DNA of 64,000 bases, taken from positions 1 through 64,000 of the forward strand of contig JBDOQK010000053.1 in the NCBI GenBank assembly GCA_040437565.1, given 5' to 3'. The notes under the pieces were generated by a model. That model was not told the DNA's origin. It saw nothing but the letters and a program-made list of their open reading frames with translations, and ran no database searches. Position numbers and translations under genes: made by a program. This document shows positions 48,249-64,000 of the stretch, in pieces; the stretch's first letter is position 1; each line of letters opens with the position of its first letter. The DNA comes from Albugo candida (taxonomy: Eukaryota).

Positions 48249-50354
48249 ATGCGTGAGGAAAGCATTCGCAGTGGCGTTCAATTTTTGCAGCATCCGAATG
48301 TTCAGGTGCTTAAATAAGTCTTTCATTCTCATCTATCGTCTAATTACTAATCCTAATATATTTGCAAGTCGACACCTATGTCAGAACGAGTCGCTTTTTT
48401 GGAACAAAAAGGATTGACAAATGAAGAAACGCAACAAGCTTTGGAACGGTATCAGTCTGCACAGAGTGGTGAAGAAAACATTCTTCCAACAAGTATAAAA
48501 GAGCCTCTGTATACGAAATCGAATGGTGTTTCACCATTACGTAACTCCGCGCCTACGGCTTTAGCTACGTCAGTGTTGCCACTTATGATCCGAAATCCTT
48601 TTCGCCACTTTCCAGTAATTACAAAGATGATACGTTTGGTTGCAACCATTTCATCAATAGTTGGTATGGCATCAATGCTACTGTATACATGGAACTTTGC
48701 AGTGTATATGCGCATTCTTCCATCGTGGTGTAAATATCACAGCCTTTTCCCTTCTTTCGATTCGGTGGAAGTTGTTGGAGCTCGAACACAGGAATCAGAA
48801 AAAGAGAATCAGAACCTCAGTGATGAGATTAGAGAAATGACCACTGTCATGCAGAATCAGACTCAGAAATTACTTGAGATATCACAAGAGATCGATTCTC
48901 GTCCCAAACATGAAGACACAATGGATTCGATGACGATACAGGTANNNNNNNNNNNNNNNNNNNNNNNNNNNNNNNNNNNNNNNNNNNNNNNNNNNNNNNN
49001 NNNNNNNNNNNNNNNNNNNNNNNNNNNNNNNNNNNNNNNNNNNNGTTGGTATGGCATCAATGCTACTGTATACATGGAACTTTGCAGTGTATATGCGCAT
49101 TCTTCCATCGTGGTGTAAATATCACAGCCTTTTCCCTTCTTTCGATTCGGTGGAAGTTGTTGGAGCTCGAACACAGGAATCAGAAAAAGAGAATCAGAAC
49201 CTCAGTGATGAGATTAGAGAAATGACCACTGTCATGCAGAATCAGACTCAGAAATTACTTGAAATATCACAAGAGATCGATTCTCGTCCCAAACATGAAG
49301 ACACAATGGATTCGATGACGATACAGGTACTAGACGAACTGAGAAATCAAGTTGCGGAGCTAAAAATGCTTATCCATGAACCAAACATCGAACTTGGTGA
49401 AAGCAATGGGCAAGATCCGAACTTGTCACTTCCTGGAGTAATGCTGGAGGAAGTATCACATATGGAGTCACCAAGAATCGATAAAGTGCTGACTGTCCTG
49501 GATAAATTGCAGCGAGAGGTCCTCTATTCTTCATTTTCAGTCAGTGTGTTCTGAAGATTATCTGTGTGCAGAATTCCGTAGAACAGCTCCAAGATGCTTT
49601 CGATTTGATGATAATGTACGTCAAAAACTTGCTCGAAAACCCAACTGTACCCCGATATCGAAAAATTGCCACAGGGAATGTCAATTACAAAACCAAAATT
49701 GGACCAATAAAGGTACGTCAGCAAAAGCCACGCGTTTAAATGATTGTAAACAGTTTTTTCCTATAGCATCATAGAGAATTATTGGAGACGATTGGCTTTG
49801 AGCCATACGGAATGAACCTAGAATGGAAGTGGTACACATCAAAATCAGCAGAAGAACGAGAAGAGAACGCGGCGATACTCCAAGCGGTTTTGAGTACATT
49901 TCAAAGCGCTTGCAAAAGCAAAGAACTAAAGACCGGCGTTTTGAGGAATGTCGCAAAAGACGCGTTCGAGAGACAGCTTGGTGCATCGACACACACCGAG
50001 AATATCCATTTCGACGACCTTCAGGATGACAACGCGCATCGCGCTTGTGATTCAGCAACAGACAAGTGGGATACTTTTTTCCAGATGATGGAGAAGAAGA
50101 CATTGGAAACGACCGAAATCAGCTCACACCCCACTCACTCAGGCAACTTTACAGAAAAAAATCGTCAACAGTACCCGGAATCCTTTGCCGGCGTAATAAA
50201 AATGGTACAGAATGGTCAACAGCCTCCCGATATAAAAAAGTTTGAGGAGAAACTTTCCGAGGATTCAGCCATATTTGTAAGAGAGTTGAAAGAATCACAA
50301 ACTACGCAGCACAAGAACGCCACCTTTTCTTACACGGCTACACCCTCGACATGA
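48249..50354 (+). CDS. PEX14: PEX14-like protein: Pex14_N - hydrophobic segment - coiled coil - PUB - KPWE-domain-like helix pair (multi-exon; duplicate 49045-49328 is an artefact)
   Basis: MREESIRSGVQFLQHPNVQ|STPMSERVAFLEQKGLTNEETQQAL; spliced MYVKNLLENPTVPRYRKIATGNVNYKTKI...LLETIGF; YPESFAGVIKMVQNGQQPPDIK. Confidence 0.75.
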
Positions 50355-55302: not shown

Positions 55303-56535
55303 AAACTGTTTTAAATCTTCATAATTTGAAATTAGTCGCACACGTAACTGAGTACGGTCGGCTGCTTGAGTCTTAATAAGCATATGAATCAGACTTCTTG
55401 TGATCGCATTACAGTTAAGGATGAGAATGTGCTGCACAATTTCGGGATATTGCGACCGCATGGTCTGAAGCAAGTCTGTAAACATTCGCGTTTCTAAAAA
55501 ATGCTGCTGTAAAGAGCACTCTTCCGCGTCAATTATGAAGACAACGCCATTCGCGTTATTGTCTTCCATACTCTGTACTGCGAGATCTGTCAGATACACA
55601 CAAAGACGTCGAGCGTCTTCCAAAGAAGTGAAGCAGCTCGAATTGTCTTGTCCTTTTGCGATAGTTTTCAGCTCGACTGTAAATTGAGGTTTGAAGAACT
55701 TTAATTGGAGTAAAATGATGGGACACTTGTCGACATCGGTGGCGTTTTCGAGATAATGCACGTACCCTTTCTTGAGCTCTGACTGTATCCGAGTCATTCG
55801 GATATCGAGAGATTCATAGGAGAATCGATGTCTAAATTGGTGTTTTTCAATGAGCTGAGAGGCTGCTTTCATGACATTCCATTGATTGCGACATAGTGTT
55901 CGTGACAACTCCTTTTGGGAATATACGCCTGAAAGAGCTATCGCATTGGCGAGAGCCTCAAGAGCTCCATTGGGGGCAGCTAATGTACATTTTGAGTTCA
56001 TGTGTGTGTACGGAGTGGAGCCGTCTCGGTGGCAAAATGTGAATAGATCAGTGAGATAAGACGGAAATCATTTGCATACGAAGATATTTATAGTATTCTA
56101 TAATTGTATACTGGAGGCTAAAATTAGTGCTTATAGGATACTGGTACAAGGTCGGTACGTACACTGGTCTCTGGTCGGGGTCGTGGGTGTGCCGATATGG
56201 TACCAGTAAGGTACCATACGACAATGAAAAATGCAATTGACGTTTCTCTTTTGTTCAGAGTGCATCTTTCAACATATTCTACCATTAAAACAAGACAATC
56301 TCTACATTCAAGCCGGTATCGTTTCTTGCCTTTGCTCCATTTCCATCCCCGCTCCTGCTCTTCCACCGGCTTTATCACCGGCAATTCCAATAGAGGTACT
56401 TCCGCTCGAGCCTGAAACGGAGCTGGATTTCATTTTAGAAGATGATATCAATCTGTATTGACGTCCCATTGTTTTTCTCGTCATCAATGTACCATCTCCA
56501 TTTTCCGTCCCAGCGTTGGGACAGCTACAAACCAA
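55303..56535 (-). other. Assembly duplicate of 53970-55202 (5' half of the CRAL-TRIO gene, intergenic region, 3' end of the VASt gene)
   Basis: Near-identical 1233 bp at offset 1333 across a 100-N gap; one substitution noticed (tacaggagg vs tactggagg). Confidence 0.88.
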
Positions 56536-59500
56536 CGTCCCATGACATTTGGTACACGGCAAAGTTCTTATCACGCCCGCTCCAATCGATGCTGCCAGCG
56601 AAGGACCTGTTCGGACTCTACCAGGTACCTCTTCATCCTTCCCATTACCATTCTCCGTCACATCGACAAGATCGACTTGTGGGACGTACGCCATCATGCG
56701 TATCCACCGTCGACGTCGGACCGAAGCGCCCAGCCTCTTCGAACTCGATTTACCTCTCGCCAGATGTGCATTAAATCGTCGAAAGTCGGTAGCATAACTC
56801 CATCCCTCGTCGTCGCAGTCTGTGTACCGCTTATCAATTTTCCATGGTGTTGTCCACACCCAATGCGGGGGCAGCCGAATTTGCTCGAAACCCAGCTCCA
56901 CGTGGCCGCTGCGATTGGTGAAGCGAGCTCGATCGGTTGGCAGTAAATGGTTCGGACCCCATTTTCCAAACAAACTCATTCGTTGATTTTCAAATATCTC
57001 TTCCAACGCGACTGTGCCATCTAACGTGCTATTGAGTCGATTCGAAATGGACGGTTTTCTCAGCAAAGTGGGACCAGCACCACTGGGACTGGCAGCACTA
57101 TGGATGCAATGAGATGTGATTGAAGATTCAGATAACACCTGAAATCGTTTCTTCTTTCCGGGTTTTCGACTCCATTTTCCGATAGAATGACTTGTGTCAT
57201 GAGACTGCGAATCGTTCCACGATATTGGTCCATCCGGTACGAACGCTTCCGTCTCGCTGGATGAGCGTAATCCAAAATTTGCTTTTCTACGTGCTGATAG
57301 ATTTTCCGTGGTCTCTGATGGTATTTCGTATGTATCATTCGAATCCACCGACAAGGAGTCTTTATTCTCGACGACATACTTTGCAATATACTCGAAAAGC
57401 GCTTGATTGCTTTTCGCGACAGACTCCCGAAAGCTTGAGACGATTTTGCTTTTGAAAAGCGTGCTTTTAGTGAATGGAACAGCCGCGTGCACTTTAGCAA
57501 CGATGATACCCTGGGAATCAATCTTGAATTCAACGTGTTGTTCGGCAGTGAAGCAATCGTGGTATGGAATATCCTGCAGCTCTGTTTTGATCTCCAGGAC
57601 CATTGTCTTCATCCGAGAGAGTGCGTGATGCACATCGACCTTTAGAGTTGCTGGAGAGAGTGGATTTGACGATGGAATTTGAATATGCTGCTGATTCTTT
57701 GTGCGTGTGCTGGAAGGACCGATGGGAGCGTGCGTAAGTGATCGAAACCTCAGCTCACGCACAATGCCACCACACGCTTCAGAAATCTGCCAAGGATCTA
57801 CTTCCAATTCTGTATCGCCAACACTCTGACGCAATTCCTCCATGCGATGCTCCGCGCCGTTTGCATAAAAGCACGCATACAATTTGTAGAGAGAATCCAT
57901 CTCTTTAGGAAGTGAGAAATCGCCGATAAAATGACGTTCGTTTTCGTTAGAAGTGAGGAATGGAGTTTTCGGCTCTTTGACACACCCGTCTTCTGTTCCA
58001 TTTGCGGGATACTCATCCGATCCAATTGCCTTCTCCCATTCTTCCATCATTAATTCACTAGCAGTTTGTACACTTTCGCGTGTCGATGAAATGATTTTCG
58101 ATTTGAATAAACAGCCTTTAGAGAACGGAATCCCCAAAAGCACTTTGAATACAAATCCATTCCCATGCAACCGCACAAAACGATTGACTTTCTCCACCGC
58201 AAAGCAGTCGCCATAGGGGATATCGTGCAACACCATTTTCGATCGGATGATCAATTCCGCTGGATCGATGCACGCTCGAATGTTATTTTCGATACAACTG
58301 TTTTCATCGGATGAGGTTATTGCGTTGAATGCGTTATTTGGAGCTGTTGGTACCAGCAATTCCGTCAATGTGCACAGAGTCGACGATGGTCCTATGGTCG
58401 CATTCGTGAGAGATCGGAAGGATGATACTCGAATAAAGCCTCCGTACTGTTTTGCCACTTCCCATTTCCCCACTTCAGTCTCCGTCTCACCACGTGCATC
58501 TCGATATCCTTCCCAACGCTTTCGAACGGTTGGATCGGCTTCATTCCGATAAAACAAATTGAATAGAAGCTGACAATCCGTGATACTCGATGGTACCGAA
58601 TACTCTCCGACAGATTCCAATTGGCTTTCATTTGTAACGAGAAACGGTTTGGCAGATACGACTTGACCCTCATCCTTTTCACTTTCACCATGACTCTGGG
58701 TACGATCTCGCATTGAAGAAGCGGTGTACTCAAGCTTGAGTAACACTTGTCCGAGTGTCGCGTTCTCCGTGAATGCGACTAAAGGCCAACAGCATTCTAT
58801 TTCGCCTCGTTTCATCCCATAAATTCCAAATAGTTCTGAAATCGAAATAGACACCTGCCCGATTTTCGTGGTGAGACATCGTAATCGAGTCTCATACAAA
58901 GTGAGTATAAGAATTTCGGGAAGCGCTGAGATGACGGACGATGAAGCAGTGACGCCAATAGCTTTGCGACACTCATCACATTCAGAGCAAAAGTGATCTC
59001 TAAACTGCCAGCTCCATTGATCGTCCCAATACACCTTTCCATTCACACAATTTGTTGGAAGGGTTTGTCCCACTGGAACGTCATTTCGTGTGTGCCCTTC
59101 CGAGTGAAATTTGATGACAAAATAAAATTGACGAAGAGTGGAGTCATTCAGGTACGTTAATTCCTTGATCGAGAGGTTCAGAGTGTGTGATTGCAGTGCC
59201 GGTCGTTGATCTTGAGTTTCTTTCGTCAGAGAGGTATCATTCGGTAACGAGACTGAAGACGCAAGAACAGGATAGATACGATCGACTCCTGGGTTTTTGT
59301 ATGTCGATGCTTCAATAGCACGTTTGGTCGCGACACATAGCCACTTTTTCGCTGTCATTGGATCGTCCACACGCATGTAGTATGTACCACCTAATGTACC
59401 ACAAAGTTCCAATGTATTTGTCCCTATTTCGATCGGGTCCGCAGGCTTCACTGCAAAGATTTTAAGTGACATTTTCAGATTTATATTTTTTCGAGCGGCA

Positions 59501-60039
59501 TCGGCAGTTGAAAAAACCCGAATTCTCGCATTAGCGTCTAATGACACAAACCGTTTTTTCCATTTTCTACCTTTACTCGAGCTTTTCTTAATAAACACCC
59601 AGCCAAGAAGTGGATCATTTCCCAGCTCTATGAGTGAAGAAACAAAGTCTTGTTTGCTGTACAACGTGTCGGTGAAAAAAGGCAGCGAGTAGTATGGTGA
59701 GGAGTGAGGCAAGAAAGTAGCGAGGGGTGGTGACTGAGAATCCGACTCACGCAATACTTCGGGCGATGTGAGACCTTTTGGGGCTATACAGCGTGACAAT
59801 TGGCGTGTTTTTTTCGCTTTCAAGGATGCGTGTGGAGTGAAATTGCTCGATGAAGCCTTGGACCTGTTCTGGGTGTATAGCAGAAAACAGGCAAAGACGA
59901 TGAAAACGGCGAGTGTCAGTAGGACGATTGTATCGTTGTATACGCTCATGGAATCCTTCGTGATACAAACGTCATTTCTCTCTGTGGGTGATGAGATTGG
60001 CCCATGATTATTGGATGATTCGATCGCATCGGTCTCCAT
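56308..60039 (-). CDS. Membrane-anchored lipid-transfer protein: TM - PH - C2-like - VASt - VASt - DysF
   Basis: TM IVLLTLAVFIVFACFLLY; PH GWVFIKK..WKKRFVSL; two repeats FRSLT.A.IGPSST...DIPY.DCF..E...PF.K..LFKSKI.SS; DysF FENQR...LLPTDR...W.W...W..D....EGWSYA.DF...VRRRRWIR. Confidence 0.8.
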   Translation of the reverse strand: METDAIESSNNHGPISSPTERNDVCITKDSMSVYNDTIVLLTLAVFIVFACFLLYTQNRSKASSSNFTPHASLKAKKTRQLSRCIAPKGLTSPEVLRESDSQSPPLATFLPHSSPYYSLPFFTDTLYSKQDFVSSLIELGNDPLLGWVFIKKSSSKGRKWKKRFVSLDANARIRVFSTADAARKNINLKMSLKIFAVKPADPIEIGTNTLELCGTLGGTYYMRVDDPMTAKKWLCVATKRAIEASTYKNPGVDRIYPVLASSVSLPNDTSLTKETQDQRPALQSHTLNLSIKELTYLNDSTLRQFYFVIKFHSEGHTRNDVPVGQTLPTNCVNGKVYWDDQWSWQFRDHFCSECDECRKAIGVTASSSVISALPEILILTLYETRLRCLTTKIGQVSISISELFGIYGMKRGEIECCWPLVAFTENATLGQVLLKLEYTASSMRDRTQSHGESEKDEGQVVSAKPFLVTNESQLESVGEYSVPSSITDCQLLFNLFYRNEADPTVRKRWEGYRDARGETETEVGKWEVAKQYGGFIRVSSFRSLTNATIGPSSTLCTLTELLVPTAPNNAFNAITSSDENSCIENNIRACIDPAELIIRSKMVLHDIPYGDCFAVEKVNRFVRLHGNGFVFKVLLGIPFSKGCLFKSKIISSTRESVQTASELMMEEWEKAIGSDEYPANGTEDGCVKEPKTPFLTSNENERHFIGDFSLPKEMDSLYKLYACFYANGAEHRMEELRQSVGDTELEVDPWQISEACGGIVRELRFRSLTHAPIGPSSTRTKNQQHIQIPSSNPLSPATLKVDVHHALSRMKTMVLEIKTELQDIPYHDCFTAEQHVEFKIDSQGIIVAKVHAAVPFTKSTLFKSKIVSSFRESVAKSNQALFEYIAKYVVENKDSLSVDSNDTYEIPSETTENLSARRKANFGLRSSSETEAFVPDGPISWNDSQSHDTSHSIGKWSRKPGKKKRFQVLSESSITSHCIHSAASPSGAGPTLLRKPSISNRLNSTLDGTVALEEIFENQRMSLFGKWGPNHLLPTDRARFTNRSGHVELGFEQIRLPPHWVWTTPWKIDKRYTDCDDEGWSYATDFRRFNAHLARGKSSSKRLGASVRRRRWIRMMAYVPQVDLVDVTENGNGKDEEVPGRVRTGPSLAASIGAGVIRTLPCTKCHGTLVCSCPNAGTENGDGTLMTRKTMGRQYRLISSSKMKSSSVSGSSGSTSIGIAGDKAGGRAGAGMEMEQRQETIPA

Positions 60040-60318
60040 TTTAGCGATTCGCCAGTTACGTGGCGATACCCAGGTATACGGAATGGTATACACTTGATGG
60101 TCCGAATTTTCTCTATGATCCGTATATAAAATACAGCTTTGTATTCACATACTTTAATGCAGATAACGCGACTCAAACTAGAAAAAAGCGTAAAAAAAGA
60201 ATTGGTGTCGACTTGTGAGCCTCGTTGTACCACGAGCAGTGTCCTGTGATGCAAACAGAACTCGTGCTATAATACGCGTAGAAAACACAATGGGAATCGC
60301 ATGAGTGAGCAATTATCG

Positions 60319-61870: not shown

Positions 61871-63070
61871 TCAATTTGAATCAAAATCAGAATCTAGAAC
61901 GTCGTCATCCGCATTGTCAAGATCTTGATCGGTAGAGTTCCCTTCGATCTCACTGAGCTCTAGTCCTTCGTACGCTTCTTCATCTTCTTCATCTTCTTCG
62001 TCAAACTCTTTCATTTCAGTCTGAGAATTCTCTATTTTTTGCTTTTTACCAGGCCGAGTCGAGTCTTCTACATGCTGCACGATACCTTCATCACAAAACA
62101 AAACTGTATTCAGCCGCTGTTTTGCATATATCGAGTGCTGGCATGTCCGTGCGTTGATATCAAACACGTGGACCATCCTGTCCAGTCCGACTGCTGCCAA
62201 ATATGGTAAAGTCGGATGGCGCGACAAGCTGCGAATAGCTCCATCTGGTCCGAGGAATCGTCCGAGATGTTTTAGCGTTCGAAGGTCCAACACGTCCAAA
62301 CAGCCTGTCGTATCCGCCGCATACACATGCAATCCATTTGGATCGACGCACAACGCGTTGATCGGATGGTCGCCAAAATCGATGCTCTGTATGGGACGTC
62401 TCTGTGTATTTGTGTCATACAAACGGATTTGATGATACCCTGTTCCAACTACAAGTCGATGACCGTTGCTGTTGCCTTGTGAGAGAAATTCGATATCTTT
62501 TACCCAAACGGGAACTCGTAATTGCAGTTTATCAAACGGAACATTTTTGGCTCGAAATACTATTTGTTGTGTTTCCAACGACCAAATTTGTGCATCGACT
62601 TCTTTTCCACCAATTGCAAAGTGTCTCTGCACACTTTGAGCATCTTTTTGTGGTTCGAGTCGCATGCACTCTATTCGCTCGCTCAATTTGATCACATTGC
62701 CAAGTTGGTTCGTGGACGGGTTATACTCTGACACGATTCCAGAGTCCGTCACATGAAGAACAGAGCCTTTGTCTCTAATTATGTCCAAGCCAACACATTT
62801 TCCTTCTTCTATTTCACTCGTCCAATTTGGGATACATTCCGACAACCGTTCATGGCGTACAGTCAGGTTCTCAATGTAGCCATTGGCTCGAGCGAGGACT
62901 ATAGAATTACACGCTTGTGTGGGATTCTGATCCGCTTTGTGCCAACACATATGCTGTATCCCATGAGATCGACATTGGCTTTTCGTGCCAGTAGATAGGA
63001 TAATCTGTTCTTTTTTCTCTAATGCGATTGATTTAAGTAAACCTGTTTCGTCTCCGACCAAAACACGCAT
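61871..63070 (-). CDS. WDR74: Ribosome biogenesis WD40 protein WDR74/Nsa1
   Basis: MRVLVGDETGLLK, GGKE, FRAKNVPFDKLQLRVPVW, RLYDT..QRRP, VGLDR and YAKQRL; acidic tail. Confidence 0.92.
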   Translation of the reverse strand: MRVLVGDETGLLKSIALEKKEQIILSTGTKSQCRSHGIQHMCWHKADQNPTQACNSIVLARANGYIENLTVRHERLSECIPNWTSEIEEGKCVGLDIIRDKGSVLHVTDSGIVSEYNPSTNQLGNVIKLSERIECMRLEPQKDAQSVQRHFAIGGKEVDAQIWSLETQQIVFRAKNVPFDKLQLRVPVWVKDIEFLSQGNSNGHRLVVGTGYHQIRLYDTNTQRRPIQSIDFGDHPINALCVDPNGLHVYAADTTGCLDVLDLRTLKHLGRFLGPDGAIRSLSRHPTLPYLAAVGLDRMVHVFDINARTCQHSIYAKQRLNTVLFCDEGIVQHVEDSTRPGKKQKIENSQTEMKEFDEEDEEDEEAYEGLELSEIEGNSTDQDLDNADDDVLDSDFDSN

Positions 63071-63169
63071 GCTGACTTGTGTGATTTGAGCCAATCGATT
63101 AGTCTATCAATAAAGTTGATTCATTATGCGGCCAATCAGATGCTCAAAATTAATTAGATTTTGAAGGAA

Positions 63170-64000
63170 ATGTCCACAACTGATCGAAAAAAATTGATCG
63201 ACCAAAGCGTTCGCTTCCTACAACATCCGACTGTGCGAGACACTCCGCTGTCGGAGAAATTGAAATTTCTTGAGAAAAAAGGGCTGACGTCTCAGGTGAT
63301 GTTTCGAACGTGAACGGATTGCGCTGATGTCTGATCACATTGCGCGGCAGGAAATCACAAGAGCTTTGAAGGAGTATGAAGAAGCCGTCTCCAGCCAGAC
63401 AAATCAGATTGCTTCATCGATGGTATTGAGCGTGATTTCTATATGGGTTATAAGCAGTATTTCGAGTTATGTGCAAATGTAGACTGGTCTAACGAGCGGT
63501 TCTCGACTGCTCGATCGAGTTGGCGTCATTGTTGGAGGCCTTTCGGAATTCGGGTACCTTGTGTCGCTTCGATTATCTCAAGAAGGAGCAAAACTCTCCG
63601 TTGTGGACCTAGCTTCCAGGAAAGGTATCGGGAAACAACACGAAACCGATTGGAAGATCTTTTATGGCGAATCTTACGATTGGGATTTTTTCGATACATC
63701 ATACAAAACCATCGCCAACGAGTTTGATCGAATTGATTTTATTGTCAACTGTATACCAATACAAAACATTCCAATTCACAGACTCGTTGACCAAAATACT
63801 ACGATACAAGACAATCTTTTCGGAAAAGCAGCGCACGCAACGTTCTTGAGCTGCAAACGAGCCATTCATCAAATGCTGACGCAACAGAAAGAGAGCATCT
63901 GCGGTCGAATTCTTAACGTGATAACAGGTCACATCAAACACTCGTCCAAAGAGAGCTTTGAGGCAGCGGTACTCCGTCACCTCACCCACTATATTGCGAC
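63170..64000 (+). CDS. Pex14 N-terminal domain fused to an SDR-like Rossmann domain (exons 63170-63295, 63351-63422, 63483->64000; runs off the window)
   Basis: LIDQSVRFLQHPTVRDTPLSEKLKFLEKKGLTSQ|EITRAL; exon 3 is open to the window end: LLDRVGVIVGGLSEFGYLVSLRLSQEGAKLSVVD...EFDRIDFIVNC...TFLSCKRAIHQML...GRILNV. Confidence 0.75.

Follow-up and report, generated by a model that had tools for sequence, protein, structure and literature searches.

A Pex14_N domain joined to a degenerate short-chain dehydrogenase fold in Albugo and other peronosporalean oomycetes

The end of a 64,000-nucleotide stretch of the Albugo candida genome (assembly GCA_040437565.1, contig JBDOQK010000053.1, positions 1 to 64,000 of the forward strand; hereafter the window) carries most of a gene in which a Pex14_N domain, the receptor-binding module of the peroxisomal docking protein PEX14, is joined to a body with the fold of a classical short-chain dehydrogenase/reductase (SDR). 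Judged by sequence, this locus is a real three-exon gene encoding a Pex14_N and SDR-fold protein of ~307 residues. The predicted fusion is not an Albugo oddity and is conserved across the peronosporalean oomycetes, and its body is predicted no longer to work as a dehydrogenase, as the catalytic Tyr has been lost family-wide and the Albugo proteins have also lost the Lys and the glycine motif. The interpretation tentatively preferred here, at somewhat short of even confidence, is that the fusion protein would be a soluble, non-catalytic accessory protein that binds the peroxisomal import receptor Pex5.

Gene model

The features of the locus are the following, in order along the window.

63071-63169, no strand: intergenic region of ~100 nt; presumed promoter region, common to the fusion gene and a divergent WD40 gene
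63170-63295, plus strand: exon 1; 42 codons, Pex14_N helices 1 and 2 with both Phe of the WxxxF/Y pocket
63296-63350, plus strand: intron 1; 55 nt, GT..AG, phase 0, holding the ATG at 63329 that is the start of protein model P0002
63351-63422, plus strand: exon 2; 24 codons, Pex14_N helix 3 and a helical linker (AlphaFold2 helix 41-67)
63423-63482, plus strand: intron 2; 60 nt, GT..AG, the last triplet an in-frame TAG
63483-64000, plus strand, cut by the window end: exon 3; first 172 residues of the degenerate classical-SDR-fold domain

The ATG at 63170 is the first in-frame ATG after a stop, as the stop-to-stop frame starts at 63158. Exon 3 remains open for 172 codons, up to base 63998, and a frame of this length would be expected by chance with a probability of ~7e-4 at the stop-trinucleotide frequency of the window (0.0416). 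The source genome's own protein model of the gene (P0002, 273 residues) contains exons 2 and 3 letter for letter and supplies the last 69 residues, which lie beyond the window end. The N-terminus of this model, MSDHIARQ, is intron-1 sequence read from the ATG at 63329, and exon 1 is consequently absent from it. The counterpart in Albugo laibachii Nc14 (P0001, F0W9J3, 306 residues) has 72% identity to exon 3 over the full length and begins at the position that corresponds to 63170; in it exon 1 runs straight into exon 2. The junction between exons 2 and 3 (..SSM on one side, TGL.. on the other) is present in both models. Exon 1 alone matches profile positions 1-37 of the 46 positions of Pex14_N (PF04695), and the match in P0001 (46.9 bits) spans positions 1-46, across the equivalent of the exon 1-exon 2 junction; intron 1 thus splits the domain, which is complete only when the transcript is spliced.

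Most of this gene structure had been proposed in an earlier interpretation made from the letters alone (the sequence-only reading). It had placed Pex14_N in exons 1 and 2 with coordinates that prove correct, and the 60-nt intron ending in an in-frame TAG and followed by a 172-codon open frame is confirmed in the sequence. The profile comparison it had proposed returns both domains above their Pfam cut-offs, with 47.6 bits (E 1.2e-12) against 23.2 for Pex14_N in exon 1 and 31.7 bits against 26.6 for adh_short (PF00106) in exon 3. It had also allowed that exon 2 might not splice to 63483 or that the SDR part might be a separate gene; the former is answered by the junction in P0002 and P0001, and the SDR part does not stand as a gene of its own. 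Its remark that the gene had been missed by the open reading frame (ORF) track needs amending, as the source genome does have a model of the gene, but holds to the extent that the model lacks exon 1.

The same observations bear on whether the fusion could be an annotation artefact, in which two neighbours were wrongly joined, or a decaying gene in which the Albugo SDR is a pseudogene remnant. The omission of exon 1 from the source genome model and the extreme divergence of the Albugo SDR domain would be in keeping with such an explanation. However, intron 1 splits the Pex14_N domain and exon 2, the exon linked to the SDR in P0002, completes it; 12 named species have the fusion, and AlphaFold2 predicts the fold with confidence. 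Further, the frame is intact over ~240 residues in two Albugo species at 69% identity, which argues against a decaying pseudogene. An artefact or a decaying gene is therefore considered very improbable.

Retention of intron 2 would give an 85-residue, Pex14_N-only product ending at the terminal TAG of the intron. On the other side of the gene, a WD40/beta-propeller gene identified by Pfam (61871-63070, minus strand) starts ~100 nt from the ATG of the fusion gene, and the divergent arrangement at this distance suggests that the two probably share a promoter region.

The Pex14_N head

Exon 1 aligns with 12 distinct Protein Data Bank (PDB) sequences of the PEX14 N-terminal domain at E <= 0.01 (best 8.5e-6). 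The Phe residues in its ..VRFLQ.. and ..KFLEKKGLT.. segments lie opposite both Phe of the human PEX14 domain (..KFLQ.. and ..AFLKKKGLT..), and both pocket positions are matched by Phe in the alignments to 2w84_A and 4bxu_A. These two human residues are reported to be crucial for the binding of the PEX5 WxxxF motif (preprint 10.1101/2025.08.01.668090, available in part). The head is also clearly related to that of the canonical PEX14 encoded in the same genome, with 28 of 61 residues identical and a local alignment score of 150, compared to 24.7 +/- 4.8 (maximum 48) for 500 shuffles. Within Albugo, the Pex14_N core (residues 1-50, from exon 1 and the start of exon 2) is identical to P0001 at 44 of 50 positions.

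By sequence comparison, the head is more strongly conserved than the body. Identity is 88% for the head and 69% for the body between the two Albugo proteins, 67% and 39% between Albugo and Phytophthora ramorum, and 81-92% and 60-87% for the remaining pairs.

The fusion protein does not appear to be membrane-bound. None of its 19-residue stretches attains the usual membrane threshold, and the highest 19-residue Kyte-Doolittle mean of the full-length model is 1.41, at strand beta1, compared to the 1.82 reached by the canonical PEX14 of the window; the sequence-only reading, which had seen no transmembrane segment in the visible part, was right on this point. Neither a C-terminus resembling peroxisomal targeting signal (PTS) type 1 nor an N-terminal pattern resembling PTS2 is present in any of nine family members examined. 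The Albugo SDR contains the string WKIFY (residue 123), which might have served as an internal WxxxY ligand for the head; this idea was rejected, as the string falls in predicted strand beta3 (123-127) and is absent from the seven non-Albugo orthologues examined.

The resemblance to PEX14 is therefore limited to the three-helix N-terminal domain with both pocket Phe. In place of the membrane and coiled-coil parts of PEX14, the fusion protein has an SDR fold, and it has no hydrophobic segment. Further, P0001 and P0002 have no match to the PEX14-like KPWE domain and P0001 has none to PUB, both of which are found for the canonical PEX14 of the window. From this domain content, the fusion protein is classed as a member of the Pex14_N and SDR-fold families but not as a PEX14 orthologue. 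A closer parallel in one respect is PEX33, a fungal paralogue of PEX14, which is likewise a lineage-restricted second Pex14_N protein beside PEX14 and has been assigned to the membrane docking complex (Jansen et al. 2021, PMC8172628, available in part). PEX33 is membrane-bound, however, and the fusion protein has an SDR fold and no membrane segment.

Five further proteins among the cluster representatives searched with phmmer (P0008, P0009, P0010, P0012 and P0107; 722-2200 residues) consist of 4-12 tandem Pex14_N domains and little else by Pfam, and the module is thus evidently used outside classical PEX14. Such proteins lend some weight to the idea that the head of the fusion protein binds a partner other than Pex5, for example Pex19, Pex13 or tubulin, with a role in membrane-protein targeting or organelle positioning. 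Against this, both pocket Phe and the KKG segment that follows are conserved, and the head is identical at 28 of 61 positions to the canonical PEX14 head of its own genome. A partner of this kind is regarded as improbable.

The SDR body

The body is recognizable as an SDR. In addition to the adh_short match of exon 3, the same exon scores 25.8 bits against adh_short_C2, just below the cut-off of 27, and the full domain reaches 37.9 bits (P0002) and 44 bits (P0001) against adh_short. Scores against adh_short_C2 drop stepwise from the bacterial relatives (209-220 bits) to the other oomycetes (147-159), A. laibachii (55.7) and the window protein (43.5). The SDR landmark strings listed by the sequence-only reading, including EFDRIDFIVNC and GRILNV, are all present and in order. 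AlphaFold2 predicts a Rossmann fold for both Albugo proteins, with a mean predicted local distance difference test (pLDDT) of 79.6 for P0001 and 80.4 for P0002 and a predicted template modelling (TM) score of 0.71 and 0.78, respectively; the linker, the active-site loop and the substrate loop are the only parts modelled with low confidence. A Foldseek search of the PDB with the P0001 model returned classical SDRs (best E 5.4e-13, TM-score to target 0.65-0.74).

It is the catalytic residues that have been lost. The active site of classical SDRs is a tetrad made up of Asn, Ser, Tyr and Lys (PMC2792337, available in part). Among 37 rows examined, three of which could not be assessed at this column, the catalytic Tyr is replaced by Phe in 30 (..FTFGVxK..) and retained in two (P0170 and P0183), and both Albugo rows have a four-residue deletion around it and a Glu at the Lys column. 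The Asn column holds Ser or Ala in all 18 oomycete-type rows of the SDR alignment. The window protein reads Ala, Thr, deletion and Glu across the four columns, and the other named oomycetes read Ser or Ala, Ser, Phe and Lys. The claim of a degenerate SDR lacking YxxxK at the expected place is thus upheld, as none is present at the aligned position, and Tyr to Phe in the other named oomycetes extends the predicted loss beyond what had been claimed for the single protein.

In classical SDRs the motif of the glycine-rich cofactor loop is TGxxxGxG; the window protein has VGGLSEFG and A. laibachii VGGLSDFG, with the middle Gly replaced by Glu or Asp, while the other oomycetes retain a glycine loop (GGNxGLG) along with the Ser and Lys. 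Consensus residues of the Albugo body are best preserved in strands beta1 and beta4 and in helix alpha4 (16 of 28), compared to 1 of 11 in the active-site loop and 2 of 17 in the substrate loop. In a maximum likelihood tree of the SDR domain, the Albugo stem measures 3.16 changes per site, compared to 1.35 for the branch between bacteria and oomycetes and a median tip length of 0.14.

The nearest relatives outside the oomycetes are bacterial classical SDRs (e.g., P0184 and P0186, which reach the NCBIfam 'glucose 1-dehydrogenase' cut-off). These are 43-47% identical to the Phytophthora SDR part over ~79% of its length and have unusual strings in common with it, such as ..CKRAVQQMLTQ... Unlike the oomycete proteins, they have the full Asn-Ser-Tyr-Lys set and no Pex14_N. 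The oomycete proteins could not be placed in a specific SDR subfamily, as they score under the NCBIfam cut-offs (P0006, the P. ramorum orthologue, 146.7 against 215; P0001, 43.1), and matches in the ESM Atlas are to generic SDR clusters only. No NmrA family occurs among the Pfam matches of P0001 (E <= 0.1) or P0002 (E <= 1e-5).

As P0170 is a fusion that retains Ser, Tyr and Lys, the simplest history is that the head was added to a still active SDR and that catalysis disappeared afterwards. It should be noted that 13 of the 24 inner branches within the oomycete SDR clade are open, leaving the branch order there unsettled, and the claim that Tyr is ancestral thus rests on the bacterial relatives and P0170 and not on topology.

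P0170 also makes it probable that the ancestral fusion was an enzyme, which raises the question of whether the present proteins could be active peroxisomal SDRs with a non-canonical active site, in which the head is a mere targeting device replacing PTS1. The high adh_short_C2 scores of the non-Albugo SDR domains, their retained Ser, Lys and glycine loop, and the lack of a PTS1 or PTS2 pattern would all be in line with this explanation, which fits the non-Albugo lineages and the Tyr-keeping P0170 better. Conversely, Phe stands at the Tyr position in most of the family, the tetrad Asn is replaced in every oomycete-type row, and the Albugo proteins are without the Lys, the glycine motif and nearly all consensus residues of the active-site loop. 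An active enzyme is considered unlikely, if slightly less so than a partner other than Pex5.

Distribution of the fusion

Homologues were searched with P0006 as the query. Of the 120 proteins in the resulting list, 34 are eukaryote-like, with 55-100% identity, and the remainder are bacterial SDRs with <= 47% identity to P0006. Pex14_N and SDR families occur together in 19 of the 34 eukaryote-like relatives, and these include 11 named species. Five of them belong to Phytophthora (P. ramorum, P. rubi, P. cactorum, P. infestans and P. kernoviae); the others are Nothophytophthora sp., Plasmopara halstedii, Peronosclerospora sorghi, Globisporangium splendens, Pythium oligandrum and Pythium insidiosum. 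A. laibachii is the twelfth named species with the fusion. The search of other oomycetes that the sequence-only reading had suggested has therefore found the fusion well beyond Albugo. The linker and the junction can be aligned from Albugo to Phytophthora. One fused protein of 332 residues (P0158) is encoded on a contig of 1087 nt, on which introns would have little space; this is in keeping with an uninterrupted frame.

An exhaustive phmmer search of 1.84 billion cluster representatives returned 1571 matches at E <= 0.001, with P0002 ranked first. Pfam was run on 22 of the best 150 matches (those that were top-ranked, long or matched in several stretches), and both domains were found only in P0006 and P0007 among these 22.

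Canonical PEX14 and other genes of the window

The canonical PEX14 of the window lies ~15 kb from the fusion gene and comprises the following features.

48249-50351, plus strand: canonical PEX14 gene; ATG at 48249, Pex14_N, hydrophobic segment with a 19-residue Kyte-Doolittle mean of 1.82
48306-48368, plus strand: PEX14 intron; 63 nt, inside the Pex14_N domain, at a position that differs from that of the fusion gene's intron
49506-49739, plus strand: ORF with a PUB match downstream of the PEX14 head; Pfam 38.6 bits, cut-off 34.3
49767-50351, plus strand: ORF with a PEX14-like KPWE domain; Pfam 31 bits

The PEX14 head, the PUB ORF and the KPWE ORF are treated here as one putative gene. The Pfam matches on the downstream ORFs agree with the sequence-only reading, which had described a PUB-bearing PEX14 nearby, and no paper combining 'PEX14' and 'PUB domain' was found among the full texts searched. 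The further proposal of that reading, an undescribed variant peroxisomal import system, is not sustained, as only domain content lies behind it and two unusual Pex14_N genes 15 kb apart are insufficient. Inside the PEX14 coding region, a gap of 100 N (48945-49044) is flanked by a perfect direct duplication of 285 nt (48660-48944 is identical to 49045-49329), which looks like a scaffolding artefact. The window contains 11 gaps of exactly 100 N.

On the minus strand at 56311-60144, an open frame of 1278 codons has Pfam matches to VASt (95.6 bits) and to Pex24p, 'integral peroxisomal membrane peroxin' (40.8 bits). Counting PEX14 and the fusion gene as well, the genes with peroxin-type domains number three within 16 kb, which may be chance. 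A Pfam sweep of the window found no encoded Pex5. Between 12388 and 44709, Pfam identifies a KIF-binding protein, a poly(ADP-ribose) glycohydrolase, a PH-domain protein, a protein kinase, a metallophosphoesterase, a Myb protein, RNA polymerase subunit N, a pyridoxal phosphate (PLP)-dependent enzyme, ribosomal protein S9, WD40 and KH proteins, PIG-S, cytochrome c and a Nup35-type RRM.

Discussion

Under the preferred reading, the head of the fusion protein would, like the N-terminal domain of PEX14, bind to Pex5 at the WxxxF/Y motifs of this import receptor, and the SDR body would provide a folded, probably oligomeric, non-catalytic scaffold, which outside Albugo may still bind NAD(P)(H). Cytosol is depleted of PEX5 by beads to which the PEX14 N-terminal domain alone is attached; PEX5 passes into the lumen together with its cargo, its WxxxF/Y motifs bind a lumenal PEX14 domain, and it is unfolded during export (Skowyra and Rapoport, preprint 10.1101/2022.05.31.494222, available in part). 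On this background, a free cytosolic Pex14_N protein should be found on Pex5, and nothing known to us would prevent a protein bound in this way from entering together with the receptor. The default would then be co-import into the matrix independently of a PTS, since Pex5 would carry in whatever is bound to it, though this is the weakest step of the proposed mechanism. Once in the matrix, the protein would add soluble Pex5-binding sites beside those of membrane-bound PEX14, and Pex5 would be stripped on export.

A specific co-import combined with a lumenal role is a more demanding claim, and on the present analysis a doubtful one. Retaining and releasing Pex5 in the matrix is a task of membrane PEX14 alone in animals and partly of Pex8 in fungi. 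It is conceivable, if on balance unlikely, that the fusion represents a third way into the peroxisome, in which the PEX14 head, copied onto a soluble SDR by oomycetes, lets the protein grip the WxxxF/Y motifs of Pex5 instead of presenting a PTS, and in which the enzyme afterwards lost catalysis but was kept as a soluble, possibly oligomeric lumenal factor that helps to retain the receptor in the matrix or release it there. A partial precedent may be yeast acyl-CoA oxidase, a PTS-independent cargo that binds the N-terminal half of Pex5, outside the TPR domain; the possible likeness would be entry without PTS1 or PTS2 through a grip on the receptor. Acyl-CoA oxidase, however, has no Pex14-like domain, whereas the fusion protein would hold on by a duplicate of the very module with which the docking protein binds the receptor.

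The domain evidence is the same for a protein that stays in the cytosol as a regulator or decoy, capping the WxxxF/Y motifs of free Pex5, tuning or delaying docking, and perhaps responding to NAD(P)(H) where GxxxGxG is kept. Binding of PEX5 by the PEX14 N-terminal domain on its own is strong enough to remove the receptor from an extract (10.1101/2022.05.31.494222), the glycine motif GGNxGLG is retained outside Albugo, and SDR-fold redox sensors are known (PMC2792337, available in part). SDR folds without the classical active-site residues have non-enzymatic roles in NmrA, NMRAL1/HSCARG and the regulatory subunit MAT2B (PMC2792337), and this much the fusion body would share with them. These three are atypical or extended SDRs that still bind dinucleotide (PMC2792337), whereas the fusion body is a classical SDR by fold and nearest relatives, and its Albugo glycine motif is broken. 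The two Albugo species have kept the gene even though Glu or Asp replaces the middle Gly; with the motif broken in this way (GGLSEFG in the window protein), sensing of redox state or NAD(P) becomes less likely in Albugo. The interpretation given by the sequence-only reading is thus supported in part, and the roles that it put forward (decoy, redox or NAD(P)-sensing import regulator, oligomeric scaffold or piggy-back adaptor) are candidates only. Nor is anything known to us that would hold a Pex5-bound protein back from co-import. A cytosolic decoy is accordingly regarded as rather unlikely, and the soluble Pex5-binding accessory protein remains the preferred reading.

There are several observations that weigh against the preferred reading. 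The N-terminal domain of animal PEX14 has other partners (Pex19 and tubulin), and a protein sitting on the WxxxF/Y motifs might just as well impede docking. The change from Tyr to Phe speaks against the canonical SDR mechanism but not against every possible activity. P0001 and P0002 are both themselves gene predictions. In the homologue search, 15 of the 34 eukaryote-like rows are without Pex14_N and are shorter at the N-terminus. At least some of these look like truncated models, as P0002 is, and unfused forms would also be possible; for example, P0180 from P. insidiosum begins in the linker, whereas P0169 from the same species is fused. Lastly, no Saprolegnia or Aphanomyces protein appeared in either the P0006 homologue search or the phmmer search, and the fusion may thus be confined to one branch of the oomycetes.

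Full-text literature searches, which did not cover most subscription journals or ~1.7 million PMC articles, returned no published study of a Pex14_N-SDR protein, and the available part of a comparative PEX survey that includes Phytophthora infestans, its supplements aside, does not mention the fusion protein (PMC8172628). Many of the 'PEX14x' matches in Phytophthora papers are effector names. The family goes under several names in public databases ('carbohydrate esterase, putative', 'Enoyl-(Acyl carrier protein) reductase' and 'Peroxisome membrane anchor protein ...'), the first of which is the name of both P0001 and P0156 (P. infestans) and is supported by no domain match. With exon 1 missing from the source model and misleading names elsewhere, the gene is easy to overlook. 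What appears to be new is a predicted soluble Pex14_N protein on a pseudo-SDR scaffold, conserved in the peronosporaleans and most degenerate in Albugo.

All Pex14_N domains with an assigned role that are known to us sit on membrane peroxins, and how Pex5 is retained in and released from the peroxisome is still debated. A Pex14_N protein that is soluble by nature would offer a convenient means of probing this holding and release step. The family is shared by an entire group of pathogens of plants and animals, has been kept even in a reduced obligate biotroph, and would offer a clear case of an enzyme fold retained after catalysis was lost.

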